Shown in pieces: positions 2,038 through 60,099 of a stretch of 64,000 bases of DNA (its first letter is position 1; the number at the start of each line of letters is the position of its first letter). The stretch lies in sequence record MK234886. One strand, given 5' to 3'. Under the pieces are notes generated by a model. It saw only the letters and a list, made by a program, of their open reading frames with translations, did not search any database and had not been told where the DNA came from. The stretch is from Escherichia phage AnYang. Both the position numbers and the translations under genes were made by a program.

Positions 2038-2068
2038 AATATTTTCCTCATCATTAGTTGATAAATCT

Positions 2069-2097
2069 ATAGTATCATGCCTACCGGAGATGTACAC
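2069..2097 (-). promoter_or_regulatory. T4-type early promoter
   Basis: Minus strand: -35 GTGTAC (2092..2097), 17-nt spacer, -10 TACTAT (2069..2074); followed by the conserved leader AGAxCTATCAACTAATGAGGA. Confidence 0.5.
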
Positions 2098-2115
2098 CCT
2101 TTTTTTAAAGATTTA

Positions 2116-2144
2116 GAAACAAAAATGGGACTCCGAAGAGTCCC
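2116..2144 (-). terminator. intrinsic terminator
   Basis: Minus strand: GGGACTC-TTCG-GAGTCCC hairpin followed by ATTTTTGTTT. Confidence 0.7.
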
Positions 2145-2149
2145 ATAAC

Positions 2150-2311
2150 TTATGCCTGAGGCTTACCAAAGCAAGCAGCATCTGCACGCAATACCGCACG
2201 AGCACGAGCTTGAAGCTTATCAACTACCTGATCGATACGCTTGTTGGACGCACGCTTGTAACCAGCGCGTTTAGAGGTACCGTCAACTACTTTAACTTCT
2301 TTCTTAGCCAT
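2150..2311 (-). CDS. small basic protein (53 aa), not in ORF track
   Basis: Manual translation MAKKEVKVVDGTSKRAGYKRASNKRIDQVVDKLQARARAVLRADAACFGKPQA; followed by an intrinsic terminator. Confidence 0.35.
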   Translation of the reverse strand: MAKKEVKVVDGTSKRAGYKRASNKRIDQVVDKLQARARAVLRADAACFGKPQA

Positions 2312-2578
2312 TTTAAATCTCTTAAATTAGAATGCAGGACTTATTGGCGTTGCCTGCGCAAGCCCTCAAGGGGAACATAGGTTTCAAATATTTAACGACA
2401 GGATAACCGTAAACCTCGTCATCATACCGACCACGACTTAGACAGATAACCTTTTTCTGACGCGTGATAGTACAAAATACATTCAAGAGGTACACCGTAA
2501 AATTGTCGGGGCGGTACTTCTAAAATATACCGATTCGTAAATCGGTAATCAGACAATTCGACGGCTCCTCGATTTAAT

Positions 2579-2827
2579 TTACTTCAGGGTAATAATAAAA
2601 TGACGTACTGCTTTACGAGCCGCTGAAGCCAAAGGCTTAGCAAATTTCAGTTCATCTTTAGCTTCCAGTTCAGCAGCCAGAGTAGCCTGAGCCGGATTAA
2701 GATGTTTGAAATAACGCAGGATTTCCAGTGCTTCGGCTTCAACATCAATAGATGCGCCATAGTTTTCGTGACCGTTGTTCCAAGCGTTGCGTTGCAGTTC
2801 AAGAGCGTGATTCAGTTGTTTGTTCAT
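2579..2827 (-). CDS. rIII: rIII lysis-inhibition accessory protein
   Basis: 82 aa, matches my recollection of T4 rIII; lies between gene 31 and the 30.x-like ORFs as in T4. Confidence 0.75.
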   Translation of the reverse strand: MNKQLNHALELQRNAWNNGHENYGASIDVEAEALEILRYFKHLNPAQATLAAELEAKDELKFAKPLASAARKAVRHFIITLK

Positions 2828-2965
2828 TTTAGTTTCTCAATTCGAGATAAAGATTGGCGAGCACGTTCGTCTCAGTATTTCCAGCTGAGTTGTATCTCGC
2901 CGTATGGAAGAGGCTAACCCCATACACCAACCGAAGTTCTGTATGACATCAACCTCTTCGTAATT

Positions 2966-3289
2966 TTATTTATACAAGCAAGGAATTGCTTTATAATGAC
3001 AGGTAACGAATTTTTGTTTAATTTCTTTAGGCTGCTTAATACCTAGAGCAACTAAAGGATGAGGCACGTTAGCAATCTTACCAACAGGAAGTGGAGTCAA
3101 ATCACCTACTTCACAAAAATCTTCAGGGACATCAGGTCCCACAGAATAAATTTCACAAAGTTCAGGGATTTCGCCTTGATGGAGTTTGCCAATAACGATA
3201 CCAGATGCAGTAGTTTCTTCATCACCAGCTTGTTTTGGTTCGGAAACGAGAATAACATATTCTCCGACCGCTTTAATAGGAAGTTCCAT
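2966..3289 (-). CDS. 31: gp31 co-chaperonin (GroES-like) for capsid protein folding
   Basis: [15 protein letters not shown]...[23 protein letters not shown] is near-identical to remembered T4 gp31. Confidence 0.9.
2967..2974 (-). promoter_or_regulatory. candidate T4 late promoter upstream of rIII
   Basis: TATAAATA on the minus strand overlapping the 3' end of gene 31. Confidence 0.4.
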
Positions 3290-3347
3290 ATTTAATCCAT
3301 ATTGTTTTGTTGATAGATTAATAATAACACGCTATTCTTAAAGCATA

Positions 3348-3644
3348 TTACAGGACAAGCAGAGTTTCGGTCTGAAGGCCGTTAACAGAAATCAGCTTAT
3401 CGAAACGGAATGAACGCCATTGTTGAAGGTCGACATCAAAAACATATAGAGAATTACGTGGACCCTGTTTACCTGTTTGAGATTTGAAGTCTTCCTTTTT
3501 AGGAAGAAGGTCTAAGTCACGAGTGCATTTAAGACGACGGATATTACCATTAATCTTTTCAAACACCACTTCGTGAGTACCCACAGACAAAATAGTCTTG
3601 ACTTTTTCACGGAGACGAATAGTTTCTTGTTCAGTTAAAATCAT
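3348..3644 (-). CDS. hypothetical protein (31.1-like position)
   Basis: ORF track; synteny between 31 and cd. Confidence 0.4.
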   Translation of the reverse strand: MILTEQETIRLREKVKTILSVGTHEVVFEKINGNIRRLKCTRDLDLLPKKEDFKSQTGKQGPRNSLYVFDVDLQQWRSFRFDKLISVNGLQTETLLVL

Positions 3645-3646
3645 AA

Positions 3647-3880: not shown

Positions 3881-4425
3881 TATTCACCACAATAGTTTTG
3901 AATTGATTCCCAGTTCAAAGAACGGAGACCTGTACGGTTATACTGGATAACTTCGATGCCTGATTCACGGAGGATATCGTCCCAACCTTCAGGATTTCGG
4001 TCATAGAGCTCAGCATAAACCAATGTTTTAATTCCTGACTGCGCAATAGACTTAGCACAATCAGCGCACGGAGATAATGTCACGTACATCGTAGCGCCAT
4101 CAATAGAACTTCCGGTACGAGCTGCAAACAAAATAGCATTCAGTTCAGCATGGATTTCATTTTTAGATGACCATGCAGCGTGAGCCATACGGTGTTCTTT
4201 AAGAAGAACGGATTTATGCGACATCCGTGTCGGGTCATACACAACACGAGTCCAGTCCTGTTCCACAGCATGGTCGCAACAGTTAACACCACCAGACGGT
4301 GAACCGTTATAGCCTGTAGAGATAATGCGACCATTCTTTTCGATAACCGCACCCACTTTCCATGAACAACATTTTGATTCTTGAGAAATCAGATATGCAA
4401 TCTGAAGGTATGTGCTTGCTTTCAT
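3880..4425 (-). CDS. cd: dCMP deaminase
   Basis: Cytidine/dCMP deaminase zinc motifs HAELNA and PCADC; 181 aa; T4 cd position. Confidence 0.85.
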   Translation of the reverse strand: MKASTYLQIAYLISQESKCCSWKVGAVIEKNGRIISTGYNGSPSGGVNCCDHAVEQDWTRVVYDPTRMSHKSVLLKEHRMAHAAWSSKNEIHAELNAILFAARTGSSIDGATMYVTLSPCADCAKSIAQSGIKTLVYAELYDRNPEGWDDILRESGIEVIQYNRTGLRSLNWESIQNYCGE

Positions 4426-4796
4426 TACATCACCACTAGATAAGCTGTATTATTGGTTTCGACACGATATAAATCGGTACGAAGTTTAGTGATAGATTTC
4501 ACACGTGAGGTTAATATACTATAACCGTCTGGGAAGCGTTTTTGTTTATCGAAAAATACCGCCGCCGGAATTCGATCACCAATTTCAACCGGAAGAACAG
4601 TAGCCAGCACAGCATCATATGTTGAAGTATGGATGCTTTGGAAATCTTCACTCAGTTTAAAAAGGTCTTTGATGTACTGAGTAGCCTTTTCAGAGAGACC
4701 TCGATGGTCTCCGTCTTCGTCAGAATGTAAGGTGGCATTAACTGCCAGTTTTAAATTAAGCATCAATATACACCCGCTGCGCTTCGACCAAACCAT
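4425..4796 (-). CDS. hypothetical protein (cd.x region)
   Basis: ORF track; true start may be internal. Confidence 0.35.
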   Translation of the reverse strand: MVWSKRSGCILMLNLKLAVNATLHSDEDGDHRGLSEKATQYIKDLFKLSEDFQSIHTSTYDAVLATVLPVEIGDRIPAAVFFDKQKRFPDGYSILTSRVKSITKLRTDLYRVETNNTAYLVVM

Positions 4797-4992: not shown

Positions 4993-5546
4993 TAGATTGT
5001 CTCCAACTTAAGTTGTTTGGTAGTGGTAGCTTGGGTAACGTCGCCTTTAACAATATAACACACTTGTTGGAACGAACCGGTCAAAAGCTCTTCAGCCTGT
5101 CGATCCGCTTGTTCCTTTGTGTTATGGCGAGAATGAACTTCAATCTTACCATTTTTAACAATAAGCACTTTCCAATCGGCCGGAGTTTTAATAGGTTTGA
5201 TTTCAGGGTTCTGGAAAACTAACTGCAATTCTTTAGGGTCTACCACTTCAATAAAGTATTCGAATTCATGGCTAAAAAAGCCCGCTGAATTAAAAAGAAC
5301 ACTATTTGCATCATCAGGATTACCTGTCATTTTGCTCGGGTCGACAAACATCATCTCGTCATATACACGAATTCGGCTTACGCGTTCACGCCCATTATGA
5401 TAATCAATTTCAACTTCAAACGGATTCATACCCACATACTTAGCAAAAGCTGTATTGAGGCCATAAGCACCGTTATTAGTGAATTTGTTTTTAGTGTATT
5501 CACCAACGAACTTGTAAAACTTACGCTCTTCAAAGAACTTACTCAT
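4992..5546 (-). CDS. hypothetical protein (184 aa)
   Basis: ORF track; early promoter at 5579..5606 upstream. Confidence 0.45.
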   Translation of the reverse strand: MSKFFEERKFYKFVGEYTKNKFTNNGAYGLNTAFAKYVGMNPFEVEIDYHNGRERVSRIRVYDEMMFVDPSKMTGNPDDANSVLFNSAGFFSHEFEYFIEVVDPKELQLVFQNPEIKPIKTPADWKVLIVKNGKIEVHSRHNTKEQADRQAEELLTGSFQQVCYIVKGDVTQATTTKQLKLETI

Positions 5547-5578
5547 TTCGATTTCCTCATTTGTTTCGGTAAGGTCAT

Positions 5579-5606
5579 CATATCACCGTCCTTGGTGAAA
5601 GTAAAC
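5579..5606 (-). promoter_or_regulatory. T4-type early promoter
   Basis: -35 GTTTAC (5601..5606), -10 GATAAT; flanking short inverted repeat. Confidence 0.45.
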
Positions 5607-5613
5607 ACCTTTT

Positions 5614-5892
5614 TTAAATAGCTTCGACAACTACCGTTTGTTTCTGGAAGTCCATTTTGCATGAAATAGCCAAAATGTGGTTATCAATTTTAAATGGAAC
5701 AATTGCAAATGCTGCACCAGGCGTGAGTTGAACAGTGATTGCATCAACTGCATCTGGGAACATGATTTCCAGAATAGCAGACAAACGACCGTGCACTTTT
5801 AGTTCAGTCGACACGTCGACAGTTTCGTATAGATAATCAGATACAATCTGACTAAAAACTACTTTAACAATTTCAGAATAAGTAGGGAACAT
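5614..5892 (-). CDS. hypothetical protein
   Basis: ORF track. Confidence 0.4.
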   Translation of the reverse strand: MFPTYSEIVKVVFSQIVSDYLYETVDVSTELKVHGRLSAILEIMFPDAVDAITVQLTPGAAFAIVPFKIDNHILAISCKMDFQKQTVVVEAI

Positions 5893-6115: not shown

Positions 6116-7509
<1,394 letters not shown>

Positions 7510-7543
7510 AATAATTTCCTCAATTTTTATAATCCGTAGGAGC

Positions 7544-7573
7544 ATTATACTCTGCTCCCAAGAGTTTGTAAAC
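7544..7573 (-). promoter_or_regulatory. T4-type early promoter with stem-loop
   Basis: -35 GTTTAC (7568..7573), 18-nt spacer, -10 TATAAT (7544..7549) inside inverted repeat GGAGCA...TGCTCC. Confidence 0.6.
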
Positions 7574-7676
7574 TACTTTCCAAAAATACCATTCATACAC
7601 AGGCTGAACACGATACCAAAGCAAAAGAATGCAGCGCCAAATCTAACGGCATCCCAACCGCAAACACATGTCTCAA

Positions 7677-8317: not shown

Positions 8318-8820
8318 TTGGTAATAATCTCGATGATGTCATCACGTGACAGGGAATTAATAAGAACTGTTTTAGGATTTTCACACTGAATTTTATATGT
8401 TTCAAACATAAAACAGAGTTCTTCAGCGGTATGGTAAGGACTTGAAATACCAAGGCGATTAAACTTGTCGCTTAATGGGTCACAAATCAAATAGAAAGTG
8501 ATGCCTGAGATTTTAACATTAGGTTGGCTAATATTAATGAACACCTCGGCATCGTACTTGGAAAGGTTATTTTGGAGAAACTCAACCATAGAGTTGACAG
8601 CTTCAGGCATAGCCTCGCGCTTTTCTTCCGCATAACGGGTAGAGTATTCTTTTTGCTTGATTTTCTTTTTAGCATTTTTAGCTAAAGTAACACGAAGATC
8701 GGTCAGGTAACCTACTGCACGAGAACCTTTAAAAACTTGGATACCGTCAGTAGAGTCACCAAAAGCCTTAACAACCATTTCGTTAGTAATCATCTGCATA
8801 TTCATTTGTTTTCTCCTCAT
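8305..8820 (-). CDS. alc: Alc-like protein (transcription-termination factor on cytosine DNA), by synteny
   Basis: 171 aa ORF between rnlA and the spanins, where T4 has alc; early promoter 8835..8863 upstream. Confidence 0.5.
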   Translation of the reverse strand: MRRKQMNMQMITNEMVVKAFGDSTDGIQVFKGSRAVGYLTDLRVTLAKNAKKKIKQKEYSTRYAEEKREAMPEAVNSMVEFLQNNLSKYDAEVFINISQPNVKISGITFYLICDPLSDKFNRLGISSPYHTAEELCFMFETYKIQCENPKTVLINSLSRDDIIEIITKCLN

Positions 8821-8834
8821 TAGTTGGTAAGTCT

Positions 8835-8863
8835 ATACTAACACATCATGAGGAGATGTAAAC
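8835..8863 (-). promoter_or_regulatory. T4-type early promoter
   Basis: -35 GTTTAC (8858..8863), 17-nt spacer, -10 TAGTAT (8835..8840). Confidence 0.6.
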
Positions 8864-10011
8864 TACTCTACCACAATTTCTTTCAAATATTTTTCAGGGA
8901 TTTGGGCTTTATGGTTTTTCAAGAACACAGAGTTAATCTGGTCTACAACCGTATCATAATTAATACCACCCACGTACGCCTGCATAAGAATAGAGAACAA
9001 CCCTGGGAAATCCTTAAGGATTAGCTGTCCGGTAACGGCGTAGTCTTTACGGTCGCGGCCTTTGAGTTGAGAGTAAGCTGCTTCCAACAAAGCCAATGAT
9101 TGTTCTAGGTAATCTAAATGGGTACGTTCAAAGGCATCGATTTTCTCAATAGCAAACGAATCTGTACTGAACAGACCACGAAGGTCATCAGTTCCACCTG
9201 CCACTACAACTTCAAACAACCGTTCGTTATTGTTAATGGAATCTTTGGTATGATGTAGTGCACTGTACCAGGCGGTTTTGAGTTTAAAGAACGTACCATC
9301 TTTCAGTACAAAGATGAAACCTTCAATACCCTCTTGTTTACGGATGTTTTCTACGAAATCACCCTCAGCGAGCTCATAGCTTTCAACCAAATGCTTACGC
9401 AGCGCGCCGTCCTTAAACAATTCAGCATACGGAATATACTCACCTGTTTCATTATTACGAACGTTCAACAGGATGAGGTTTGTTTCTTGGTAAGCCAGCA
9501 CGATACGGTTGGTAGGTGCAACATATTCAAGGTTGCAGGTATACCCAGCTTTGGTGATTTCTTCTAGACGTGCGGCAAAAGCCTCATTCTCAGGGAGACG
9601 AAGGAAACGTAAAGAATCATATACCATCGATGAATGGATAGAGCCTTTAGATTTAACAGAAAGATACTGACGGTCCATGAATGTAGAAATCAGAGAACCA
9701 TCTTCCTTAGCCATTACGAGGTCGATATTTTCTGGCGACAAATCCAGACCGATAGTCAGTGGGTTTTCGTCAAGGTTAAAGAACTTTTGCATAGGACGAG
9801 CAGCAATACGTACCGGACCGTTCTCGTCCATTTCAAACATAATGCCTCGGCACTCTAGTGCTCCGTCCTCCAACCAATCAGAGTATGATGCATAGTTATA
9901 ACTAAAGATGCGATAGTTGACTCCTAGCGCACTCTGAAAGTCTTTAAAGAAGAACTTAGATTTAGTCGAGTTTTTAACCAGGGCCATCAAGTTATCATAT
10001 AATTCAATCAT
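8863..10011 (-). CDS. rnlA: RNA ligase 1
   Basis: Close match to remembered T4 Rnl1 (YRIFSYNYASYSDWL, ALECRGIMFEM, EDGSL). Confidence 0.85.
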   Translation of the reverse strand: MIELYDNLMALVKNSTKSKFFFKDFQSALGVNYRIFSYNYASYSDWLEDGALECRGIMFEMDENGPVRIAARPMQKFFNLDENPLTIGLDLSPENIDLVMAKEDGSLISTFMDRQYLSVKSKGSIHSSMVYDSLRFLRLPENEAFAARLEEITKAGYTCNLEYVAPTNRIVLAYQETNLILLNVRNNETGEYIPYAELFKDGALRKHLVESYELAEGDFVENIRKQEGIEGFIFVLKDGTFFKLKTAWYSALHHTKDSINNNERLFEVVVAGGTDDLRGLFSTDSFAIEKIDAFERTHLDYLEQSLALLEAAYSQLKGRDRKDYAVTGQLILKDFPGLFSILMQAYVGGINYDTVVDQINSVFLKNHKAQIPEKYLKEIVVE

Positions 10012-10429: not shown

Positions 10430-10455
10430 AGCAATAAGGGGCCGAAGCCCCGTCC

Positions 10456-13943: not shown

Positions 13944-14071
13944 AATTTCCTCAATATGTTAGGTTCTATAATTATTCTATCATAGAACCTGTTAAGCATG
14001 GACTGATATTTATAGAATGAAATTCAGTCCGACCATAATAACCAAAAACAGAGTACAGATTATTTGAATTT

Positions 14072-15760
<1,689 letters not shown>

Positions 15761-15785
15761 TTTATTCTCCTTAGTTGATAAGGCT

Positions 15786-45926: not shown

Positions 45927-45927
45927 A

Positions 45928-46546: not shown

Positions 46547-46620
46547 TTTATTTTCCTCTCATTTGTTGATAGGGTAATCTTATCACTACCCTACCATATT
46601 GTATACTGTTTTTTTAAACT

Positions 46621-47187: not shown

Positions 47188-47228
47188 AATTTTCTCTCTT
47201 GGTTAAAAGTTTATTCTCCGTAAGAGCC

Positions 47229-47257
47229 ATTATAACATGGCTCTCGATAAAGTAAAC
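47229..47257 (-). promoter_or_regulatory. T4-type early promoter with stem-loop
   Basis: -35 GTTTAC (47252..47257), 17-nt spacer, -10 TATAAT (47229..47234); inverted repeat AGAGCCAT/ATGGCTCT. Confidence 0.6.
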
Positions 47258-47259
47258 TA

Positions 47260-48314: not shown

Positions 48315-48341
48315 TTTGTTCTCCTCATGTTGATAGGGTAG

Positions 48342-48370
48342 ATAATATCATGTCATGAGGAGAAGTAAAC
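48342..48370 (-). promoter_or_regulatory. T4-type early promoter with stem-loop
   Basis: -35 GTTTAC (48365..48370), -10 TATTAT; inverted repeat CTCCTCATG/CATGAGGAG. Confidence 0.5.
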
Positions 48371-48374
48371 ACTT

Positions 48375-49049
48375 TTATCGATTTTTTACACTTAACGGGT
48401 CAGGATTCTCAGGGACATCTTCCAGGCCCAAGGCGTATCGTTGGGCATATTTAAGCATCAAGATATCCTTAGCACAGTCATGGATGGAGTCATGAGCAAC
48501 AAAGCCGTTCAATGTTCCGTTAGGCAGAGGACACATGCTCAATCCACGAGTCAATGAATATGCTTCAATAGCCGTACGGATGTCACGTTGGTTCCAGAAT
48601 TTAACCGGTTCTAATTTGCTGGTATCGATTTCATTCTCAGGGACACCTTCAGAACGATAAGCATCGCGAATAAGGTCGACTAAGATAGGAAAGTCAAATG
48701 ACATTCCACGACACCACATCTGTGATTTCCATTGGTCCACTTCGTTTTTACGGCAGTATTCCAGGAAATTACCAAGGCCGATAGAAGTGCTCACATCAAT
48801 TTCAGATGGCGCCAGGTTTTTACGTGCTTCAGGCCCTTGCTCTTTCCACCACTGTAACGTGCTTTTAGAAAACAGTCGTCTATCACGTTGAGAAGCGAGG
48901 TCAAATTTAATACGAAGGCCCCGTCGAGTAAGCTCTTCAAACGTTTCTACAACCTCTGGATTAGGGTCATAAGCAATTACCGCGAGGTCGATAACCGCCG
49001 CGTTTTGGGTAGTGGCAAAGGTTTCAAAGTCAATAATTATATCTTTCAT
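48375..49049 (-). CDS. dexA: DexA-like 3'-5' exonuclease A
   Basis: 224 aa with DnaQ-like N-terminus IIDFETF; located upstream of dda as in T4. Confidence 0.65.
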   Translation of the reverse strand: MKDIIIDFETFATTQNAAVIDLAVIAYDPNPEVVETFEELTRRGLRIKFDLASQRDRRLFSKSTLQWWKEQGPEARKNLAPSEIDVSTSIGLGNFLEYCRKNEVDQWKSQMWCRGMSFDFPILVDLIRDAYRSEGVPENEIDTSKLEPVKFWNQRDIRTAIEAYSLTRGLSMCPLPNGTLNGFVAHDSIHDCAKDILMLKYAQRYALGLEDVPENPDPLSVKNR

Positions 49050-49285
49050 TTAACATACCTCATAAGGTCACGGATTTGACCGACGGTGTAGTCTTCAATA
49101 TAAACCGAAGAGATATTGTCGTCCATCAGTTTTTGTACAGCAATAAAATCGTATTCAATCTCTTTAAGAGAATGCAAGACCTTATGAGCCTTGCCACGGA
49201 TATTGGTATCGTCTTGGTTGACCTTAATAATATATTCTGTTTCAAATTTCAACTTATAAAATTGGTCTTTAGTTACTTTAATCAT
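49046..49285 (-). CDS. hypothetical protein; start probably ATG 49285
   Basis: ORF track 49046..49336 overlaps the dda 3' end; an internal Met lies just past the dda stop. Confidence 0.35.
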   Translation of the reverse strand: MIKVTKDQFYKLKFETEYIIKVNQDDTNIRGKAHKVLHSLKEIEYDFIAVQKLMDDNISSVYIEDYTVGQIRDLMRYVK

Positions 49286-49292
49286 ATTTTCC

Positions 49293-50624
49293 TCAAACGT
49301 AATAAGCATCAGTACGAGCACGAGTAATACTAACATAAGCTAGCTGTGAAGCTAAACTCACATCAGCCATATGCATACACGGCGTATAGATGAAACTGTT
49401 CTGGACCGTGAGGCCTTGGGATTTATGAACAGTGCTCACAGGAAGAGCTCGAACCTTAGTAAACATTCTCTTAGCTTTCCAAAAATCAGCCCACTTAGGT
49501 TTCTTACCACTACCACGCATGGCTTTGTACTCAGTAGCAACCTTAGCCAAGAAATAATGGAACTTCTCAACCGAAGCCTCATCAATAACCTTTAAGTGCT
49601 CTACGTAATACTCATCATCTTCATCGATAGATTCTACTTGGAGGTCCCAGTAATTAATCATTTGTCGAGTGCCTACATCCTTAGCAGACAAGAACAATGA
49701 GGTGTGGTTCACATCTAGAATACGAACCATTTGACCATTATTAAAAATGGTTTCAGAGAATTTCTTACCGTCGTATTCAAGTTCCTTCATAAAAGGCTCT
49801 TGCATTACCAGGATTTCACCTTTGATATAAGGTGCATCGGTTTCGTAAAGCTTTTTACGAATAATGCTATTCAGCTTTTCAACCGATTTATTTGTATAAG
49901 CAAACATCCTATTTTCAAATAAGGCATCCGCGTCTTTTACAATGGAAAAATAATTCATCATAAAATCTTTTAAAGCGGTTTGGGATTTAAAGCCATGAAC
50001 ACCATGTCCTTCGAATACACAATCTCTAAACCATCCACCATTACGGATTTCAGTAGCAACCTCAATGATAGGAGCATTACTACGCATTACTTCGGTCAAA
50101 TGCAATTGCTTGATTTTTGGATGAGTAAAGAACGGAGACAACTGTGGACTACCATCACTTCCAGGTTCCACTGGCTGTAGCTGAGCTCTGTCGCCAATCC
50201 CTAATACAGTACACCATGGAGGCACGGAAGATTCAATAATCTTAAACAGCTTACCGTCAATCATCGAGCCTTCATCAACAACTAGCACATTACATTTACT
50301 CAAATCAGGAGCTTCGCGTTGTTCAAAGATGTCCTGGTCTTCGTATGTGGTAGGGTTAATCTTTAAGATTCTATGGATTGTTGATGCTTCTTGACCTGCG
50401 AGTTTCGACAACACCTTTTTGGCCGCATGAGTGGGTGCAGTCAAAATAACTCCGAGTTCACCATTCTTGACTAGATGGTCAAGAATAAATTTGGTAAGGG
50501 TTGTTTTACCCGTACCGGCTGGACCGTTCAATGTAATCCATTCGCCCTTACGTCGTTTAATAGCTTCAATGATTTCTTTAAAAGCCGTCCTCTGGCCAAT
50601 GTTCAAGTCTTCAAATGTAATCAT
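49293..50624 (-). CDS. dda: Dda DNA helicase (SF1B)
   Basis: 443 aa; Walker A GPAGTGKTT; close match to remembered T4 Dda throughout. Confidence 0.9.
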   Translation of the reverse strand: MITFEDLNIGQRTAFKEIIEAIKRRKGEWITLNGPAGTGKTTLTKFILDHLVKNGELGVILTAPTHAAKKVLSKLAGQEASTIHRILKINPTTYEDQDIFEQREAPDLSKCNVLVVDEGSMIDGKLFKIIESSVPPWCTVLGIGDRAQLQPVEPGSDGSPQLSPFFTHPKIKQLHLTEVMRSNAPIIEVATEIRNGGWFRDCVFEGHGVHGFKSQTALKDFMMNYFSIVKDADALFENRMFAYTNKSVEKLNSIIRKKLYETDAPYIKGEILVMQEPFMKELEYDGKKFSETIFNNGQMVRILDVNHTSLFLSAKDVGTRQMINYWDLQVESIDEDDEYYVEHLKVIDEASVEKFHYFLAKVATEYKAMRGSGKKPKWADFWKAKRMFTKVRALPVSTVHKSQGLTVQNSFIYTPCMHMADVSLASQLAYVSITRARTDAYYV

Positions 50625-50921: not shown

Positions 50922-51671
50922 TTAACCTCTAATCAGTGAAAAAATTGAAGCATTCAGCGGAAGACCTTTTTTCAACTTCAATTTGTCAATAAAAGAAAGG
51001 TGTTCTAAACGCTCCAGACCTTGAATAATTTTATCATACATATCGTAACGCGTTTCTGCTTCAGACAATTTAAACTTGACGCGCCAATCAGGCCCACCAA
51101 TTAAAGATTTAAGGCCTTTTTCCATAGTACCGATTGAAGCATTAGAACCATGGATACGAGCTTTAACCGCGATGACAGAAGGGGTCTTATCAGTAGCTCC
51201 TGATTTAATAAGGTCCTTAAGACGTTTTTCACGCTTTTTAAGGCCTCTTTGGGTATCTTTAATATTTTTAACGATTTTACGAATTTTATAATAATTATCG
51301 GGGGTAACTTTAAAACTATTAGGCATTTTAGAACTACCTGAAATACGGGACGCTAAACGAGTCTGTGCACGTTTCAATTCATCTAAAGACAAATCAGCGC
51401 GCAACCAGTTGTACTTAACTTTAACCGGGATTACATTACCTTCGATATAACCTATATCGTTGTTAAAGCGTTCAAAAGAAATCTTATCACTATCTGAATT
51501 CTCATCAAAGCGCTCGCCTGAATATGCACACACTTTTTGTTCAAGAAGTCTACGAACGTACTTACTAGACAGGTTAAAGTCCTTACCACGTTTTTTGGCA
51601 GAGGCTTTAGTGTGTTCGCGACGTTTGTAAACCTTTAACTCAAATTCATCAGTAGTTTTAATAGTAGGCAT
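50922..51671 (-). CDS. hypothetical protein at the T4 srd position
   Basis: 249 aa between dda.1 and the ModA/B-like genes; promoter 51712..51740; call by synteny only. Confidence 0.45.
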   Translation of the reverse strand: MPTIKTTDEFELKVYKRREHTKASAKKRGKDFNLSSKYVRRLLEQKVCAYSGERFDENSDSDKISFERFNNDIGYIEGNVIPVKVKYNWLRADLSLDELKRAQTRLASRISGSSKMPNSFKVTPDNYYKIRKIVKNIKDTQRGLKKREKRLKDLIKSGATDKTPSVIAVKARIHGSNASIGTMEKGLKSLIGGPDWRVKFKLSEAETRYDMYDKIIQGLERLEHLSFIDKLKLKKGLPLNASIFSLIRG

Positions 51672-51711
51672 AATATTTTTCTCATCTTACGGACGATTAG
51701 TTGATAGGTCT

Positions 51712-51740
51712 ATAGTATCACGTTGCTTGATAAAGTAAAC
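51712..51740 (-). promoter_or_regulatory. T4-type early promoter
   Basis: -35 GTTTAC (51735..51740), 17-nt spacer, -10 TACTAT (51712..51717). Confidence 0.6.
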
Positions 51741-51809
51741 ACTTTTTTGCTTTAAATTTTCGACGGTATAATGAATCAAGGACTTTGCCTTTCAATTAAA
51801 CCGGGTGGT

Positions 51810-52424
51810 TCAGTAAGAAAGAACGGAAAGATTCCAAATGGTGTAATTATTCCATTTAGGATTTCTCTCAATAGAGTCTACGCGCAGCGTAGTTCCCGCA
51901 GGGAACATCATCTCATCTTCATCATTTATTAATTGTAAGTTTGCTACACGGGTAGATTCAGGAAATGCGCCTGGGAACTCTTCAGGGGGTGCGGCACATA
52001 ACATTTTAAAGATTTCTTCCTGATAATTGTACACAAATGGTGCATCATTAATACAAAAGATATTAAATGTGCCGTAGAAGTTATAAGATGCGAAGTTACG
52101 AGCTACATTGAAATCTTTTGAGAAGCTCATTACTCGGTCGAATTCAATTACGGCACCTACACACATTGTGGACTCTAGATACTTCATAGTCTTTTTAGAT
52201 ATACCGCGATAGAGCTTATCAGGCACTACAGAAGTCAGGTTCTTACGAATAATTTTGTTCAGAGTTTCCTGGATATTATCTGGTTTATTTTCCATGCACT
52301 GCCAGAGCGTGCTCTGTTCTAAATCAGAATAAACCTCATCAATTTCTATCTGAGTATTCTCACGGAAATCATCGCATTTGGCGTTGTTGATAAATTCTGC
52401 TAATTTATGGCTCGGATATAACAT
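51810..52424 (-). CDS. ModA/ModB-like mono-ADP-ribosyltransferase (R-S-E class)
   Basis: LYRGIS (Arg), MSFSKD (Ser-x-Ser), EDEMMF (Glu); about 204 aa; paralog of the adjacent gene. Confidence 0.65.
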   Translation of the reverse strand: MLYPSHKLAEFINNAKCDDFRENTQIEIDEVYSDLEQSTLWQCMENKPDNIQETLNKIIRKNLTSVVPDKLYRGISKKTMKYLESTMCVGAVIEFDRVMSFSKDFNVARNFASYNFYGTFNIFCINDAPFVYNYQEEIFKMLCAAPPEEFPGAFPESTRVANLQLINDEDEMMFPAGTTLRVDSIERNPKWNNYTIWNLSVLSY

Positions 52425-52449
52425 ATTATTCTCCTCAGTTGGTAGAAAG

Positions 52450-52479
52450 ATAGTACCACAAGCTTCCTTGCCTGTAAAC
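52450..52479 (-). promoter_or_regulatory. T4-type early promoter
   Basis: -35 GTTTAC (52474..52479), 18-nt spacer, -10 TACTAT (52450..52455). Confidence 0.55.
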
Positions 52480-53048
52480 TAAAAATCCAACATTTTTAAA
52501 TGAATTGTTTTGTACTCGATTTCGCACGGGTCTCTTTTGACGGTTTCGATTTCAACAATCTCGAATCGTGATAGGCCGGAGACCATGAACTCACATTCAG
52601 TTTCAACCATATCATAGAGGTCAATACGAGTTTCATCAATTTCAAGGTCGTCTACATTCCCTGCAAGAACAAGGTCGATAGCATGGTTGTAGTAGTCGAA
52701 AATGAACGGTGCATTCCTGAGACTTAAAATGGTTTTGGTTCCGTATTCCCATGCCCCTGCGAACTGACGAGCCTGAGAGTATTGTGTACTAAAAGAAGTA
52801 ACGCGACCAGGAGACCATTGACAACCTACTGAAAGGAGCTCTAATTGCTCAAGTTCTCTGGTGGTAATCCCACGATACAACTCTACCGGAACCGCTGAAG
52901 TAACATGCTTACGGACTAGTTTGTCGAGGTCGTAATGGAAGTTAGGGTCCTTTTTAGCATCCAGACATTTCTCTAACAACGCTTGTTCAGATTTTGAAAA
53001 TTTGGAATTGATTCGGTCTTGATAAAGACATTTTTGTTCGATGTTCAT
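52479..53048 (-). CDS. ModA/ModB-like mono-ADP-ribosyltransferase (R-S-E class)
   Basis: LYRGIT, TSFST, ECEFMV; about 189 aa; promoter 53073..53101. Confidence 0.65.
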   Translation of the reverse strand: MNIEQKCLYQDRINSKFSKSEQALLEKCLDAKKDPNFHYDLDKLVRKHVTSAVPVELYRGITTRELEQLELLSVGCQWSPGRVTSFSTQYSQARQFAGAWEYGTKTILSLRNAPFIFDYYNHAIDLVLAGNVDDLEIDETRIDLYDMVETECEFMVSGLSRFEIVEIETVKRDPCEIEYKTIHLKMLDF

Positions 53049-53072
53049 ATGACCTCCAGTGATTTAGAGGTC

Positions 53073-53101
53073 ATTATAACATGAAGGGAGGAGGTGTAAA
53101 C
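53073..53101 (-). promoter_or_regulatory. T4-type early promoter with stem-loop
   Basis: -35 GTTTAC (53096..53101), 17-nt spacer, -10 TATAAT (53073..53078); inverted repeat GACCTC/GAGGTC. Confidence 0.6.
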
Positions 53102-53337
53102 TACTTAAACACACCAAGTGGGACGCCAAACACTGCAATGTCAGCAGCCATGCCTAATGAGGATTGGGTATATGAAGTATAGGAGCTTTTTGATTCATAA
53201 GAGCTTTTTGTTTCTGGCGCCTTGGCCGTAATCTTAGGAGCTTTTGCCTGAATATTTTTTTGCTCGATTTCCTTACGAGCTTGTTTACGGTCGATATCCA
53301 ACGTCGATGTAGGTATATTAGTTAGCCAATTCATCAT
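53101..53337 (-). CDS. hypothetical protein
   Basis: ORF track; start uncertain. Confidence 0.35.
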   Translation of the reverse strand: MMNWLTNIPTSTLDIDRKQARKEIEQKNIQAKAPKITAKAPETKSSYESKSSYTSYTQSSLGMAADIAVFGVPLGVFK

Positions 53338-53522
53338 TTTACCCAAGGAGCCCATGGAGGAGGGTCTAAGTAATAAGAAGCTAGGTCGCTAAGAGCATCT
53401 TTAGGCAACTTAAAACCATGCTTCTGTATAATCATATCAAGCTCATTGACGAGGTCAACAGGCGGCTCCTGAGTTGTTTCAGGCTCAGGGTCCGGAATGA
53501 CAAACATATCAAATAGGTCCAT
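53334..53522 (-). CDS. hypothetical protein (62 aa)
   Basis: ORF track. Confidence 0.35.
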   Translation of the reverse strand: MDLFDMFVIPDPEPETTQEPPVDLVNELDMIIQKHGFKLPKDALSDLASYYLDPPPWAPWVK

Positions 53523-54681: not shown

Positions 54682-54895
54682 AGGAAACCTCGTTTAAATT
54701 CAACTTTATCGATATCATCAGTCTCGTGACGGATTTCGGCATTAAATTCGATAGAACCGTCTTCATGCATCATAAATGAATGGACAATAACTTCGGTATA
54801 CCAAGGCGTATAGAAGTACTTTTTCAATACGTGGTTAGCTATAATTTCATCCAGACCTTTATTAGGTTTAATCCAACGATTTAACATAGTGTTCT
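54678..54895 (-). CDS. hypothetical protein; start trimmed to internal Met
   Basis: ORF-track N-terminus overlaps soc and the terminator hairpin. Confidence 0.35.
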
Positions 54896-54949
54896 CCTCT
54901 ATAAGATAAGACCATCTTAACACAACCTTCCTGGAAAGTAAACCCTTAA

Positions 54950-54975
54950 AACCAAAAAAGGAACCCGAAGGTTCC
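54950..54975 (-). terminator. intrinsic terminator downstream of soc
   Basis: GGAACC-TTCG-GGTTCC hairpin followed by TTTTTTGG. Confidence 0.7.
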
Positions 54976-54981
54976 TTATAA

Positions 54982-55246: not shown

Positions 55247-55254
55247 TATTTATA
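55247..55254 (-). promoter_or_regulatory. T4 late promoter (soc)
   Basis: Plus-strand tatttata is TATAAATA on the minus strand, about 32 nt upstream of the soc start. Confidence 0.6.
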
Positions 55255-55945
55255 TATCTCTAAAAGAGTATATTAAATTTTTGAGAGCACTTGCGGTAAC
55301 GTCATATTTACCTTTAAGTTCTTTGACTACAGGACCTGTAGTTGGTTTACCTAATGAAAGCCAAATATTATAGATTTCGCTTTTCAATGGTTCATGCCAA
55401 TGAGGAGCAGTTCGTTGAGCTTTAGAAGTGGCTTCAGATATTAATTTATTCCCACCATTCTCATAAAACTCTTTCATTATTTCTGATTGACGAGCTTTAC
55501 GTTCAGGCCTATTCTGAGCTATAGCTTGAGCCTTCCTCATTTTAATCTTAGTTTCAGGTTTATTTAATCTAAGCTTGTGCTCTATACACTGTTCTTCAGT
55601 CCATTTATGTCCTTCGCTGCCAGCGCCACCTGGTAATATATTCAAGCATTCGTTAGGATGCTTTTCTCTTATTTTGGCTATTAAAAGTCTTTCATGATTA
55701 AAAGATTCTTCTAAATTTTGGTGGCCTACAAACCAACGTATTTTATATTTTAGACCATACTTTTTATACATATTCCATAAGATTTTGCCAGAACCTGGAT
55801 ATCTATCTTTATTTGGATTTAGTATAAAGGTTTCATGTTTACCACCATACCAAAAGACGCCTTTCGGCGTCCTAATTTTTATCAAATAAGTTCTATAAAA
55901 CTTAGCCTTAATAGCCACGGTCCTGCCTTGCAAAGTTTTCAGCAT
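55250..55945 (-). CDS. freestanding GIY-YIG-like homing endonuclease (segF-like position)
   Basis: YLIKIRTPKGVFWYGGKHE N-terminus with basic helix-rich C-terminal half; adjacent to gene 56 as T4 segF. Confidence 0.55.
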   Translation of the reverse strand: MLKTLQGRTVAIKAKFYRTYLIKIRTPKGVFWYGGKHETFILNPNKDRYPGSGKILWNMYKKYGLKYKIRWFVGHQNLEESFNHERLLIAKIREKHPNECLNILPGGAGSEGHKWTEEQCIEHKLRLNKPETKIKMRKAQAIAQNRPERKARQSEIMKEFYENGGNKLISEATSKAQRTAPHWHEPLKSEIYNIWLSLGKPTTGPVVKELKGKYDVTASALKNLIYSFRDI

Positions 55946-57966: not shown

Positions 57967-58153
57967 TTACGAAAATAGCTTTATCACCATTTGCATCAGT
58001 GACTTCATAGGTATCTTCGTTGTAAAGTGGAATAATCCAAGTCACACCATCACCAGCAATAATATGGATAGCTTCTTGGTCTTTTGATACGATTTCATAT
58101 TCTTCGAATAATTCGAATACAGAAATCTTAGAGCCCGTACACATTGCACTCAT
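57962..58153 (-). CDS. hypothetical protein (63 aa)
   Basis: ORF track. Confidence 0.35.
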   Translation of the reverse strand: MSAMCTGSKISVFELFEEYEIVSKDQEAIHIIAGDGVTWIIPLYNEDTYEVTDANGDKAIFVI

Positions 58154-58349
58154 ATTGTTCCCTTCTTTTAATCAGTTGACGATGAGCCTTTTTAAGTTTG
58201 CGAAGCTGACGTTTAGTTGGCCGCGCAACATAAGCTTGAGTAGTTACTCGTCCAAAAACACCGTACTTAGGTGAAGGAGAATCGATAAAGACTTCCCACT
58301 GACAAGAGTAACTATACACTGCTTTAGAGAATTGAGTTAAGACAAACAT
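58128..58349 (-). CDS. small basic protein, paralog of 59137..59376
   Basis: Shared C-terminal PTKRQ[IL]R basic motif with the 79-aa ORF. Confidence 0.4.
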   Translation of the reverse strand: MFVLTQFSKAVYSYSCQWEVFIDSPSPKYGVFGRVTTQAYVARPTKRQLRKLKKAHRQLIKRREQYECNVYGL

Positions 58350-58350
58350 A

Positions 58351-58791
58351 TTAACCTCGATTCATAAAGGCATTAAAAATCTGGTCATCGATTGAATAAA
58401 CCGGGGCCTCCAGAATTTTCAACAGACTATTTTTGATGTACTTGCTAGGGATATCCATATTAACGCCGTCATTCAATTCGTTGTCCGGGAGGATGTCTTT
58501 AAATTCAAATCCATCAAACTCAACCTTGTCGGGAATACCTTCAGCGAAAAAATAAACCAATTGGTGCATTGCATTGCACGAAAATAATTTAGACCTCACC
58601 GCAATAAGTTCTTGCCAATGGTTTAATTCTCTGTTAAGAAGTTTATGAGCCATTGTAATTCTATCATCACTATCAACAAGAAAATAACCTAGGTATTGGT
58701 GGTCGTCGCTCCAATACATCCGGTATGCTTGTGCATTTGGATTTTTACAACGAAGTTTTTTGATAACTAAATTTCTGTTAATCTTATTCAC
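58351..58791 (-). CDS. hypothetical protein (146 aa)
   Basis: ORF track. Confidence 0.45.
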   Translation of the reverse strand: MNKINRNLVIKKLRCKNPNAQAYRMYWSDDHQYLGYFLVDSDDRITMAHKLLNRELNHWQELIAVRSKLFSCNAMHQLVYFFAEGIPDKVEFDGFEFKDILPDNELNDGVNMDIPSKYIKNSLLKILEAPVYSIDDQIFNAFMNRG

Positions 58792-59077
58792 CTGTCACCT
58801 CTTTAACGATATTTTTGTTATCGAAATTGGCATCGCAATACAAAACATAGTTATATTGCATAACACCACCTGAAGCTAATTGGTCTGACACTTCTTTAGC
58901 CATATTAGGGCGGTCGCGTTTAGTGATGTTCATGATATCGGCATAAATCTGGTGTTCAACCGATTCTTGGTCTGCAGTCATAGACCATTCACAAAGGTCT
59001 TTATCCAATCCAGCCGTAACTGGAGCCGTACCACATGATGCTACTGTAAGGATTGCTGCGATTAATAACTTTTTCAT
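58784..59077 (-). CDS. putative secreted lipoprotein; start moved to ATG 59077
   Basis: MKKLLIAAILTVASCG signal peptide with lipobox; promoter 59106..59135. Confidence 0.45.
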   Translation of the reverse strand: MKKLLIAAILTVASCGTAPVTAGLDKDLCEWSMTADQESVEHQIYADIMNITKRDRPNMAKEVSDQLASGGVMQYNYVLYCDANFDNKNIVKEVTGE

Positions 59078-59105
59078 TTTTAACTCCTCGTTAGTTGATA
59101 GGTCT

Positions 59106-59135
59106 ATAGTATCACTACCATAGACCGTTGTAAAC
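59106..59135 (-). promoter_or_regulatory. T4-type early promoter with stem-loop
   Basis: -35 GTTTAC (59130..59135), 18-nt spacer, -10 TACTAT (59106..59111); inverted repeat GGTCTAT/ATAGACC. Confidence 0.6.
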
Positions 59136-59136
59136 A

Positions 59137-59376
59137 CTATTTCAGCGAATCTTCCAAATAAATTTTACGGAATTTACGTTTTGTCTGACGAATCTGACGC
59201 TTAGTAGGCTTCACAGGAAAATCGAAGAACTCTACGTATTCTTGTTCATAATCGTTGTGACCGACTGAAAGAACCAGTTCCCAGTTGCTTACAGTACGTT
59301 GGATAAACATATTATGCTTACCAAAGGATTTATTCCAAAAAGAACTAGGAGTTGGTTTCATTAATACAATATTCAT
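59137..59376 (-). CDS. small basic protein, paralog of 58128..58349
   Basis: C-terminal VKPTKRQIRQTKRKFRK. Confidence 0.4.
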   Translation of the reverse strand: MNIVLMKPTPSSFWNKSFGKHNMFIQRTVSNWELVLSVGHNDYEQEYVEFFDFPVKPTKRQIRQTKRKFRKIYLEDSLK

Positions 59377-59517
59377 TTATTCCTCGCCTTCATGTTTATG
59401 GGCAATTTCTTCGAATTCGCTGTCACAGTCTAAACAGGTTGCGTTATCCCAAGCATCAAATACCGCTTGGTCTTCGCAGACCGAACAACCACATACTACA
59501 CATTCAAATTCTTCCAT
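59377..59517 (-). CDS. Cys-rich acidic peptide (46 aa), not in ORF track
   Basis: Manual translation MEEFECVVCGCSVCEDQAVFDAWDNATCLDCDSEFEEIAHKHEGEE; start abuts the dmd stop. Confidence 0.35.
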   Translation of the reverse strand: MEEFECVVCGCSVCEDQAVFDAWDNATCLDCDSEFEEIAHKHEGEE

Positions 59518-59721
59518 TTAGATTTCCTCAATGCGGGCATCATATTCAAAAACTTTATTGTCATCAACAAAGGCTTTCACCAGCGCATTATTCACTTCTG
59601 CATACTGCACTGTAACCCATTCAATCATATTTTGGTCACTAACATCCAGAACGGTTTCTTTGGTAAACATATTACCATTTTCAAACCAACCAATAAACAC
59701 TACTTTCTCTAATTTAGGCAT
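59518..59721 (-). CDS. dmd: Dmd-like antitoxin (inhibitor of RnlA/LsoA toxins)
   Basis: KVVFIGWFENGNMFTKE...QYAEVNNALVKAF.DD matches my recollection of T4 Dmd; about 67 aa. Confidence 0.7.
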   Translation of the reverse strand: MPKLEKVVFIGWFENGNMFTKETVLDVSDQNMIEWVTVQYAEVNNALVKAFVDDNKVFEYDARIEEI

Positions 59722-60039
59722 TTAGATTTCCTCACAGAAAGCCCATTCGGCATGATAAACCGTAGCGCCTTTAGTATCATTTAAACAAACCACATCTACC
59801 GGAGCAATTACACGATAAAGACGGGGTTCTCCTCCCACTGAACGAGCTGCACGTCCAGCATAAATCTTAGCCAAACCGATATCTTCAGTAAAGAACACAC
59901 GATTTAGGTTTTTCTTACGACCGGTTTCAGACAAAACTCCTGTTTCCTCAGGAGGACAAAGCATATTACCGATATTAGCAACACTACAACTTCCATGATA
60001 ATACACTTTATATTCTGCTTTACAGTCGATGGTTTTCAT
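59722..60039 (-). CDS. Arr-like minimal ADP-ribosyltransferase candidate (H-Y-[ED] class)
   Basis: YYHGSCSVANIGNML / RVFFTEDIGLAKIYAG / RLYRVIAPVD align by eye with the Arr rifampin ADP-ribosyltransferase core as I recall it; own promoter 60064..60092. Confidence 0.5.
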   Translation of the reverse strand: MKTIDCKAEYKVYYHGSCSVANIGNMLCPPEETGVLSETGRKKNLNRVFFTEDIGLAKIYAGRAARSVGGEPRLYRVIAPVDVVCLNDTKGATVYHAEWAFCEEI

Positions 60040-60063
60040 TTTGTTCTCCAAGTTGATAGGTCT

Positions 60064-60092
60064 ATAGTATCACGCCTACAGGAGATGTAAAC
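60064..60092 (-). promoter_or_regulatory. T4-type early promoter (drives the Arr-like ORF and dmd)
   Basis: -35 GTTTAC (60087..60092), 17-nt spacer, -10 TACTAT (60064..60069). Confidence 0.6.
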
Positions 60093-60099
60093 CCTTAAA

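Follow-up and report, generated by a model that had tools for sequence, protein, structure and literature searches.

The 64,000-nucleotide stretch of the Escherichia phage AnYang genome analyzed here (sequence record MK234886; below, the window) carries 22 dispersed copies of a compact element, all on the minus strand, in which an A-rich tract, a -35 box (GTTTAC), a spacer of 17 to 18 nt, a TG-extended -10 box (TAYWAT), a Shine-Dalgarno (SD) sequence, and a start codon follow one another. We consider it probable that the copies serve a T4-type phage as immediate-early promoter cassettes and operate broadly as in the model set out below. Comparison with published descriptions supports their identity as early promoters, or promoter-early stem-loop (PeSL) cassettes, an already known type; the finding is correct and, as such, ordinary.

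By megablast, positions 30000 to 50000 were 91 to 96% identical to Dhakavirus phages (JS98/Bp7 group, Tevenvirinae), and we assign the window to a T4-type Dhakavirus. Gene order was read from the annotation of phage dhabil. A first block of minus-strand genes (gp31, cd, pseT, alc, rnlA, denA, nrdB, nrdA, td, frd, 32, 59, 33, dsbA, and rnh) is followed by the plus-strand tail-fiber genes 34 to 38 and t and then by a second minus-strand block (asiA, arn, motA, 52, ndd, denB, rIIB, rIIA, 39, goF, cef, motB, dexA, dda, srd, modA, modB, mrh, soc, 56, 61, sp, dmd, 41, 40, and uvsX). On this gene order, therefore, the minus strand is the early/middle strand, as it is in T4.

A strict search of the window for GTTTAC-N16-19-TAYWAT returned 14 matches, all on the minus strand, versus 0.39 expected from shuffled sequences. 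A weight matrix with two blocks, the A-tract plus -35 and the TG-extended -10, gave 19 to 23 minus-strand sites versus 0 to 1 on the plus strand over a wide range of thresholds. In all 22 accepted copies, an SD and a start codon lie 24 to 49 nt past the -10, and the cassette fills the intergenic space. Weak intragenic matrix matches at 8684, 16630, 34059, and 59669 and a plus-strand match at 31386, each without a leader or start codon, were set aside as chance. The consensus is aaaaA-nn-GTTTAC ... caTGnTAnnAT, which can also be written aaaaAnnGTTTAC...caTGnTAnnAT. The copies are listed here with the extent of the cassette, followed by the core, bounded by the end of the -10 and the start of the -35; z scores and energies are from RNA folding.

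2035-2112, minus strand: core 2069-2097; upstream of a 95-amino-acid (aa) open reading frame (ORF) in the gp30-rIII region; -35 GTGTAC, -10 TACTAT, leader AUCAACUAAUGAUGAGG; without embedded hairpin (z = 0.08)
5544-5621, minus strand: core 5577-5606; 184-aa ORF; -10 TATGAT; two small hairpins (z = -1.6)
7507-7588, minus strand: core 7544-7573; 99-aa ORF adjoining pseT; hairpin GGGAGC/GCUCC around TATAAT (z = -2.9)
8803-8878, minus strand: core 8835-8863; alc; spacer arm UCUCCUCAU pairs with SD AUGAGGAGA (z = -3.9)
15758-15830, minus strand: core 15786-15815; frd.1; 11-bp hairpin with GUGA loop, -10 absorbed (z = -2.8); perfect RegB-type SD GGAGAAUAAAA
16041-16117, minus strand: core 16074-16102; frd.3; without embedded hairpin
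20634-20711, minus strand: core 20668-20696; rnh; hairpin GAACCUCU/AGAGGUUC, discriminator to SD and AUG (-13.8 kcal/mol, z = -1.5)
32222-32309, minus strand: core 32266-32294; asiA; -10 TAGTAT; without hairpin
34607-34688, minus strand: core 34644-34673; motA; boxes ATATAC/TATTAT; 12-bp hairpin around -10 (z = -3.2); RegB-type SD GGAGAUUAAAA
34902-34986, minus strand: core 34943-34971; variable 73-aa ORF (phrog_13302); flanks a cassette absent or replaced in relatives
37276-37371, minus strand: core 37328-37356; ndd; 10-bp hairpin, loop GUUAUA around TATAAT (z = -1.9)
38042-38114, minus strand: core 38071-38099; 36-aa membrane ORF; spacer arm CAUCUCCAUUA pairs with SD (z = -3.8)
38454-38529, minus strand: core 38485-38514; 88-aa ORF; full leader CUAUCAACUAAUGAGGAGAACAAAAUG (LSTNEENKM)
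46544-46621, minus strand: core 46577-46606; cef; 12-bp hairpin around -10 (z = -4.4)
47185-47272, minus strand: core 47229-47257; motB; hairpin AGAGCCAU/AUGGCUCU (z = -3.6)
48312-48385, minus strand: core 48342-48370; motB.2; spacer arm UUCUCCUCAUG pairs with SD CAUGAGGAGAA (-19.4 kcal/mol, z = -5.4); perfect RegB consensus
51669-51755, minus strand: core 51712-51740; srd; without hairpin
52422-52494, minus strand: core 52450-52479; modA; hairpin overlapping -35 and spacer (z = -2.2)
53046-53116, minus strand: core 53073-53101; modB; hairpin AUGACCUC/GAGGUCAU, -10/discriminator to SD and AUG (z = -3.6)
54885-54957, minus strand: core 54914-54943; 69-aa ORF (mrh.2-like); -10 TAAGAT; without hairpin
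59075-59150, minus strand: core 59106-59135; sp (spackle); 11-bp hairpin with GUGA loop, -10 absorbed (z = -3.7)
60037-60106, minus strand: core 60064-60092; 105-aa ORF upstream of dmd; weak spacer-SD pairing; perfect RegB consensus GGAGAACAAAA

An UP-like tract, a -35, a TGn motif, and a -10 are thus all present upstream of early genes on the early strand. The genes downstream (alc, asiA, motA, ndd, cef, motB, motB.2, srd, modA, modB, sp, rnh, frd.1, frd.3, and several small ORFs) are typical immediate-early genes. The early promoters of T4 have been described as UP/-35/TGn/-10 promoters (Hinton 2010, PMC2988021), and the T4/PST consensus is TTTACW-N17-TAYWAT (PMC4122927). Because the consensus found here agrees with this published consensus and with the anatomy of T4 early promoters, we conclude that the elements are T4-type early promoters. 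The likeness extends to the genes served (motA, asiA, ndd, alc, modA, modB, motB, cef, and others) and to the kind of hairpin. When the matrix was applied to the window and 98 T4-like phage loci, 432 matches fell on the early strand versus 11 on the other. Orthologous promoters stand before the corresponding genes of other genera and of T4 (cef, motB, motB.2, srd, modA, and modB), and the T4 sites score with the same matrix; the T4 GenBank record (AF158101) has no promoter features annotated in the stretch examined. The discriminator and leader (AGACCUAUCAACUAA) vary less among the Dhakavirus copies than in the pooled T4-like phages. A dispersed family of about 22 copies with 50 to 100 bp of similarity, some of them flanking variable ORFs, might also consist of copies of a small nonautonomous mobile element that spreads by transposition and resembles a promoter only incidentally. 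We give this explanation almost no credence: the copies stand at orthologous gene starts across genera, including the six T4 genes just named, all of them point the way the early genes do, the distance to the SD and ATG is precise in every copy, and there are neither terminal inverted repeats nor target duplications.

A PeSL is defined as an AT-rich region, sigma70-like -35 and -10 boxes, and a stem-loop, followed by an SD and ATG, the stem-loop lying mostly between the boxes or overlapping the -10, though it may also overlap the -35 or sit upstream or just downstream of the promoter (Arbiol et al. 2010, PMC2839356). Elements of this type have been described for T4, PST, RB49/phi1, and KVP40/nt-1 in that paper and in Comeau et al. 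2014 (PMC4122927). The window copies are the same composite, with an early promoter behind an AT-rich region, a stem-loop, and an intergenic position ending in the SD and start codon. The stem-loop is an embedded hairpin in 14 copies and an upstream UUCG terminator in 5, and 3 copies have neither; both the phi1/RB49 arrangement (overlapping the -10 or between the boxes) and the PST arrangement (just upstream) therefore occur. As with PeSLs, dispersed copies lie beside variable ORFs, and in some indels between close relatives the crossover falls between the -10 and the ATG. The stems of phi1/RB49 pair a G-run with a C-run, whereas those in the window are copy specific, many of them taking in the -10 and having a loop of GUGA or GUUAUA. 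Also unlike in PeSLs, association with indels is modest here (11 of 36 events), and many cassettes drive conserved regulators rather than ORFans. The PeSL papers mention JS98-type phages only in passing, for PeSL-like sequences near g43. An Rfam scan of the whole window found no family reaching its gathering score. The initial annotation of the window, made from sequence alone, had described about 20 cassettes between 2060 and 60095 upstream of minus-strand genes, with GTTTAC, a 17- to 18-nt spacer, a -10, and a leader running into the start codon, many with an inverted repeat around the -10, and had named PeSLs as the match. This account held up well: the consensus search of the window found 22 copies whose first and last members fit that span, all nine positions it had singled out are in the catalog, RNA folding of each copy gave 10 strong and 4 moderate hairpins, and the proposed kinship was borne out by both PeSL papers at the level of sequence features.

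RNA folding of each cassette covered the stretch between the -35 and the start codon. Folds were strong (z = -2.8 to -5.4) in 10 of the 22 copies (7544, 8835, 15786, 34644, 38071, 46577, 47229, 48342, 53073, and 59106), moderate in 4 (52450, 37328, 5577, and 20668), and absent from 8 (2069, 16074, 32266, 34943, 38485, 51712, 54914, and 60064). A stable hairpin around the -10 is encoded by 12 to 14 copies. The left arm lies in the spacer, at times reaching the -35, or in the -10 and discriminator. Three classes of right arm can be distinguished. Where it occupies the discriminator and first leader bases, the -10 sits in the loop or stem, as in GGUCUAUGGUA-GUGA-UACUAUAGACC at 59106 and AGAGCCAU-GUUAUA-AUGGCUCU at 47229; where it falls on the SD, its partner is a spacer arm (8835, 38071, and 48342); and where it covers the SD and AUG, the partner is a -10/discriminator arm (20668 and 53073). 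With transcription assumed to start about 7 nt after the -10, a cassette's own transcript would lack the left arm and often both arms, so that mainly read-through RNA would fold.

The arms of a hairpin belong together. Left and right arms of the same copy pair better than arms combined across copies (duplex energies; permutation P = 0.00035). Among 356 nonredundant T4-like promoters, helices of at least 10 Watson-Crick pairs were found in 29%, versus 5% of chimeras, and stems in two fixed registers relative to the -10 numbered 55 to 67, versus 7 to 16 in column-preserving permutations (4- to 8-fold). Orthologous cef promoters carry differing stems at the same place (GGUAGGGUA/UACCCUAUC, GGUAGAAGAC/GUCUUCUACC, GGUAGGAGC/GCUCCUACC, GAGGGCUAU/AUAGCCCU, and AGAUGGAUUC/GAAUCCAUCU), as do the motB promoters of other genera. 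In the cef alignment (30 phages), 10 of 11 pairs change on both sides, and the covariation score, counted on a named structure in place of an RNAalifold consensus, was 0.391 versus 0.176 for shuffles, of which 0 of 500 reached it, and at most 0.18 for slid registers. The hairpins at the modB, motB.2, motB, and cef promoters of T4 fold at -20 to -24 kcal/mol. These data bear on the possibility that the inverted repeat is a by-product, without a function of its own, of a partly palindromic consensus (cATGaTAcTATag...) and concerted evolution. Stems of the TACTAT copies do draw in part on consensus bases (AUGGUA with UACUAU; AUAG with CUAU), and chimeric controls quite often reach 6 to 7 pairs. 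Long stems, in contrast, are far fewer in both the column-preserving permutations and the chimeras, orthologous promoters have unrelated stems with double-sided changes at the same position, and promoters with a terminator carry the repeat less often; we regard a by-product as very unlikely.

At internal non-Watson-Crick positions, G.U outnumbered A.C by 79 to 21 in real helices versus 262 to 266 in chimeric helices (P = 5e-8), and the chimeric ratio rules out an artefact of composition. This bias suggests that what is selected is the transcript of the sense strand and not a DNA cruciform, and together with the covariation it points to stem-loops selected as sense-strand RNA structures.

Seven strong UUCG-loop terminators lie on the minus strand of the window. 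Five of these, which fit the definition of an intrinsic terminator (a G+C-rich hairpin with a U-rich tract directly after it), are directly upstream of an element:

2125-2146, minus strand: intrinsic terminator, UUCG loop, T-run; upstream of the 2069 promoter
16119-16138, minus strand: intrinsic terminator, UUCG loop; upstream of the 16074 promoter
34995-35014, minus strand: intrinsic terminator, UUCG loop; upstream of the 34943 promoter
54958-54977, minus strand: intrinsic terminator, UUCG loop; upstream of the 54914 promoter
60107-60124, minus strand: intrinsic terminator, UUCG loop; upstream of the 60064 promoter

The two without a following element are at gene 39 (45469-45484) and between nrdB and denA, where a terminator-like UUCG hairpin (10438-10451, minus strand) is followed by no early promoter. 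The terminators at 34995-35014 and 54958-54977 are identical (AAGGAACCTTCGGGTTCCTTTTTTGG) at a distance of 20 kb, each before an early promoter, so that the repeated cassette extends past the promoter. In the window, a UUCG terminator precedes five of the eight copies lacking a hairpin and none of the 14 that have one. In the large promoter set, likewise, an embedded helix of at least 8 pairs was present in 8 of 47 promoters with an upstream terminator versus 179 of 308 without (odds ratio of 0.15, P = 9e-8). We read this near-exclusivity as functional equivalence, in which either a terminator or an embedded hairpin deals with upstream RNA, in agreement with the view of the PeSL authors that the stem-loop is a terminator or attenuator (PMC2839356). 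The embedded hairpin might act by attenuation, by pausing, or by shielding the upstream message at its 3' end once it has been cleaved further downstream. We tentatively propose, as a possibility short of a probable one, that the hairpins act only on read-through RNA and replace intrinsic terminators in compact intergenic spaces; since a promoter's own start would fall within or past its hairpin, transcripts would be told apart by origin.

Several hairpins reach the SD. In T4, the e, soc, 49, and I-TevI genes have a promoter inside an SD-occluding hairpin, and late or middle promoters rescue translation from early read-through RNA that is itself untranslatable. Similarly, at 8835, 38071, 48342, 53073, and 20668 the start would fall between the arms, and only longer transcripts would hide the SD; here, in contrast to the T4 cases, the promoter is itself early and SD occlusion is seen in a minority of copies. 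The SD-AUG region had an unpaired probability of 0.64 in own transcripts and 0.46 in read-through RNA; with a shuffled upstream sequence it was 0.48. A drop of more than 0.3 occurred at 27% of real promoters versus 8% of shuffled-upstream controls and, in the window, at 8835, 38071, 48342, 53073, 20668, 60064, and 2069. The general purpose of the hairpin could be translational, with the SD hidden in read-through RNA and each gene translated only from its own promoter. The T4 late-promoter hairpins follow the same logic, the upstream arm pairs with the SD/AUG in seven window copies and at T4 modB and motB.2, and some changes are compensatory, for example, UUCUCCUCAUG/CAUGAGGAGAA versus UUCUCCUCUGGUU/AACCAGAGGAGAA. 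Most hairpins, however, close within the spacer, discriminator, and early leader and leave the SD open, and mean accessibility in read-through RNA equals that of the control. SD occlusion was therefore rejected as the general role of the hairpin, which we judge to be a rather unlikely explanation; it appears to be real but restricted to a subset.

The leader that follows the promoter is also conserved. The sequence AGACCTATCAACTAATGAGGA occurs five times with up to 3 mismatches, versus 0.01 expected, and looser versions (...CCTATCAAC...) are present in about 16 of the 22 copies. Its 5' half (AUCAACUAA, counted from the predicted +1) is conserved across genera with lower information content; AUCAAC(U)AA stands at predicted positions +1 to +9, for example, at 59091-59099 and 38470-38478, outside the hairpin and upstream of the SD. 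Like the early mRNAs of T4, the window leaders end in GGAG and an A-rich run, a likeness of sequence to the sites cleaved by RegB/S1. The consensus of a strong RegB/S1 site is GG*AGRAYARAA (Uzan and Miller 2010, PMC3014915). Within 2 mismatches, it was found in 13 of 22 leaders versus 1 of 84 other minus-strand gene starts (P = 4e-10), and four leaders match it exactly, as GGAGAACAAAA (38485, 48342, and 60064) or GGAGAAUAAAA (15786). The motA leader carries a RegB-type site, as does that of T4. The 3' half of the leader thus resembles a RegB-type SD, which fits the known rapid inactivation of early messages. A regB gene was not found in the 64-kb window, to which the examination was confined; regB is widespread among T4-related phages (PMC3014915). 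The initial annotation had also attributed to this leader a recurring peptide, LSTNEENKM, in the N-terminal extensions of ORF tracks. The leader does account for the LSTN peptides, and CTATCAACTAATGAGGAGAACAAAATG read in frame gives LSTNEENKM, but that exact peptide is present a single time (38480), with LSTN variants at six further elements. Such extensions are artefacts of the ORF tracks.

To assess recombination between copies, the window was compared with three Dhakavirus genomes from GenBank and with parts of five IMG/VR genomes. Two further genomes were excluded as apparent assembly artefacts: OR842557 (phage 04086), for repeated overlap duplications of about 200 bp at regular intervals, and IMGVR_UViG_2974741249, for many gaps or deletions of about 100 bp. 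We counted 36 distinct indel or replacement events outside the tail-fiber block; 33 were at gene boundaries, 11 touched an element, and 25 were away from elements. The element-touching events exceeded uniform placement (P = 0.003). In four events (16040-16102, 38075-38104, 38471-38504, and 34653/34902), the same element stood at both ends of an extra cassette or two elements were merged in a relative. At the 16074 element, eight relatives carry a cassette of 625 to 1,019 bp between two element copies, and the window sequence joins the upstream copy of dhabil (terminator, promoter, and leader) to the gene of the downstream copy, with the crossover within the shared GAGGAAA..AAAAUGG. In PSD9, the motA ATG directly follows a promoter and leader of the 34943 type. 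The 38071 element is duplicated around a 275-bp additional cassette in two relatives and the 38485 element around 253 bp in one, at the 7544 cassette relatives have an additional 444 to 474 bp (7497-7510), and the ORF at 53101-53355, just upstream of the modB promoter, is absent from six relatives.

The initial annotation had seen the elements as clustered at accessory ORFs and as marking module boundaries and likely recombination points. Seven of the nine copies it named (15786, 16074, 34943, 38071, 47229, 53073, and 59106) do coincide, in one relative or more, with the boundary of an indel or replacement, and the crossover fell inside the shared leader or SD-ATG in two events; the claim thus held as examples, with 11 of 36 events at elements and a marginal excess over ordinary gene junctions (P = 0.057). 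Variable ORFs do adjoin some copies, but not all downstream genes are accessory, several being conserved regulators of the immediate-early class (alc, asiA, motA, ndd, modA, modB, motB, and srd). The same data bear on whether the stem-loops act as DNA, in a cruciform or single-strand hairpin recognized by a recombination protein, the cassettes being first of all recombination signals. Cassette indels flanked by two element copies and crossovers within the element would fit such a role, and the PeSL paper describes mini-circles formed between PeSLs and speculates about a specific DNA-binding protein, an idea put forward for GGGG...CCCC stems (PMC2839356). Against it, stem sequences vary freely among copies and lineages with pairing alone kept, the excess of G.T over A.C on the sense strand (79:21 versus 262:266 in controls) is unexpected for a double-strand cruciform, the hairpins are exclusive with upstream RNA terminators, and 25 of the 36 indels are away from elements. 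We consider a primary role at the DNA level very unlikely.

Some of the remaining indels have causes other than the early elements, namely homing endonuclease genes and MotA-box middle-promoter cassettes, described below with other variable parts of the window. The plus-strand tail-fiber block (genes 34 to 38, 23133-31270) is by far the part most divergent from other Dhakavirus genomes, with replacements of 0.6 to 4.6 kb and 65 to 75% identity where it can be aligned, as expected of a host-range module. Three free-standing homing endonuclease genes on the minus strand are specific to the window and absent from all Dhakavirus comparators: 17165-17809 (phrog_7504), between 32 and 59; 18443-19129 (GIY-YIG with an I-TevI-type DNA-binding domain), between 59 and 33; and 55250-55945 (phrog_314), adjoining gene 56. 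Four small minus-strand ORFs are absent from some or all relatives, at 4425-4796 (phrog_2063), 33294-33641 (no family), 53101-53355 (phrog_14077), and 58128-58349 (DUF7279), and only that at 53101-53355 adjoins an early promoter element. Minus-strand middle-promoter cassettes with a MotA box lie upstream of td (13968-14030), gene 39 (45427-45484), and uvsX (63100-63135), all at indel boundaries in relatives (287, 707, and 129 bp additional, respectively). The td cassette has a hairpin, GGTTCTAT/ATAGAACC, around its -10, the gene 39 cassette is preceded by a UUCG terminator, and these cassettes resemble the "PmSL" variant named in PMC4122927.

The anatomy, strand bias, covariation, terminator exclusivity, RegB-consensus matches, and crossovers in the comparative data lead us to the following model of predicted promoter activity, hairpin action, and RegB cleavage. 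Host sigma70 RNA polymerase would recognize the A-rich UP-like tract, GTTTAC, the 17- to 18-nt spacer, and the TG-extended TAYWAT, and the A of AUCAAC, about 7 nt past the -10, would be the first transcribed base. The leader of 17 to 42 nt would end in an SD of GGAG and an A-rich run, a known type of target of the RegB endoribonuclease, through which, we propose, early messages could be shut off quickly. About two-thirds of the cassettes also encode a hairpin with arms in the spacer and in the discriminator (-6 to -1), early leader, or SD. The cassette's own transcript would be without at least the upstream arm, and only read-through RNA from an upstream promoter would fold. On that RNA, the hairpin would do the job of a terminator, either by stopping or attenuating it or by forming a cap at the upstream message's 3' end, and in about a quarter of cases it would also bury the downstream SD, leaving the gene to be translated only from its own promoter. 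The 50 to 100 bp common to the copies would permit occasional homologous recombination that deletes, inserts, or swaps an ORF between two copies.

Some observations weigh against this model or parts of it. The position of +1, 7 nt after the -10, is an assumption. Copies 32266, 38485, and 51712 have neither a hairpin nor a terminator. Embedded helices are mostly without a U tract (at least 5 T in 8 nt in 2.7%), which makes canonical intrinsic termination unlikely, and this mode of action was rejected for them. Over all promoters, mean SD accessibility was not lower than in the shuffled-upstream control (0.46 versus 0.48, P = 0.09). The RNAalifold consensus of the cef alignment itself was weak and partial (-0.52 kcal/mol), which we attribute to stem lengths and registers that differ between lineages. 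The G.U bias was not significant in a very coarse count at the level of clusters (16 versus 9), and how much weight that argument carries hinges on the independence ascribed to the promoters. Finally, the excess of indels at elements was marginal relative to gene junctions, 20% of which carry an element (P = 0.057), and breakpoint enrichment was not significant under a two-junction null; strong enrichment at elements is thus not supported with gene junctions as the null.

The finding locates the immediate-early promoters of this phage and serves annotation by indicating true start codons and the outline of transcription units. To a known type of element it adds the covariation, a strand-specific wobble bias, terminator exclusivity, a geometry in which the hairpin straddles the start site, the enrichment of RegB-type sites, and a sober estimate of how often cassettes and indels coincide; a few cassettes have demonstrably recombined with each other. 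If the hairpins do act on read-through RNA as proposed, then at about a quarter of T4-like early promoters only transcripts from the downstream gene's own, rapidly silenced promoter would be accessible to translation and to RegB, and at the remaining promoters the hairpin would cap the upstream message. The exclusivity and covariation would then reflect a general design rule of T4-type early transcription units, one not spelled out in the PeSL papers, which took the stem-loops as terminators and possible recombination signals. These results give testable predictions for the mapping of transcript ends in any T4-like phage.

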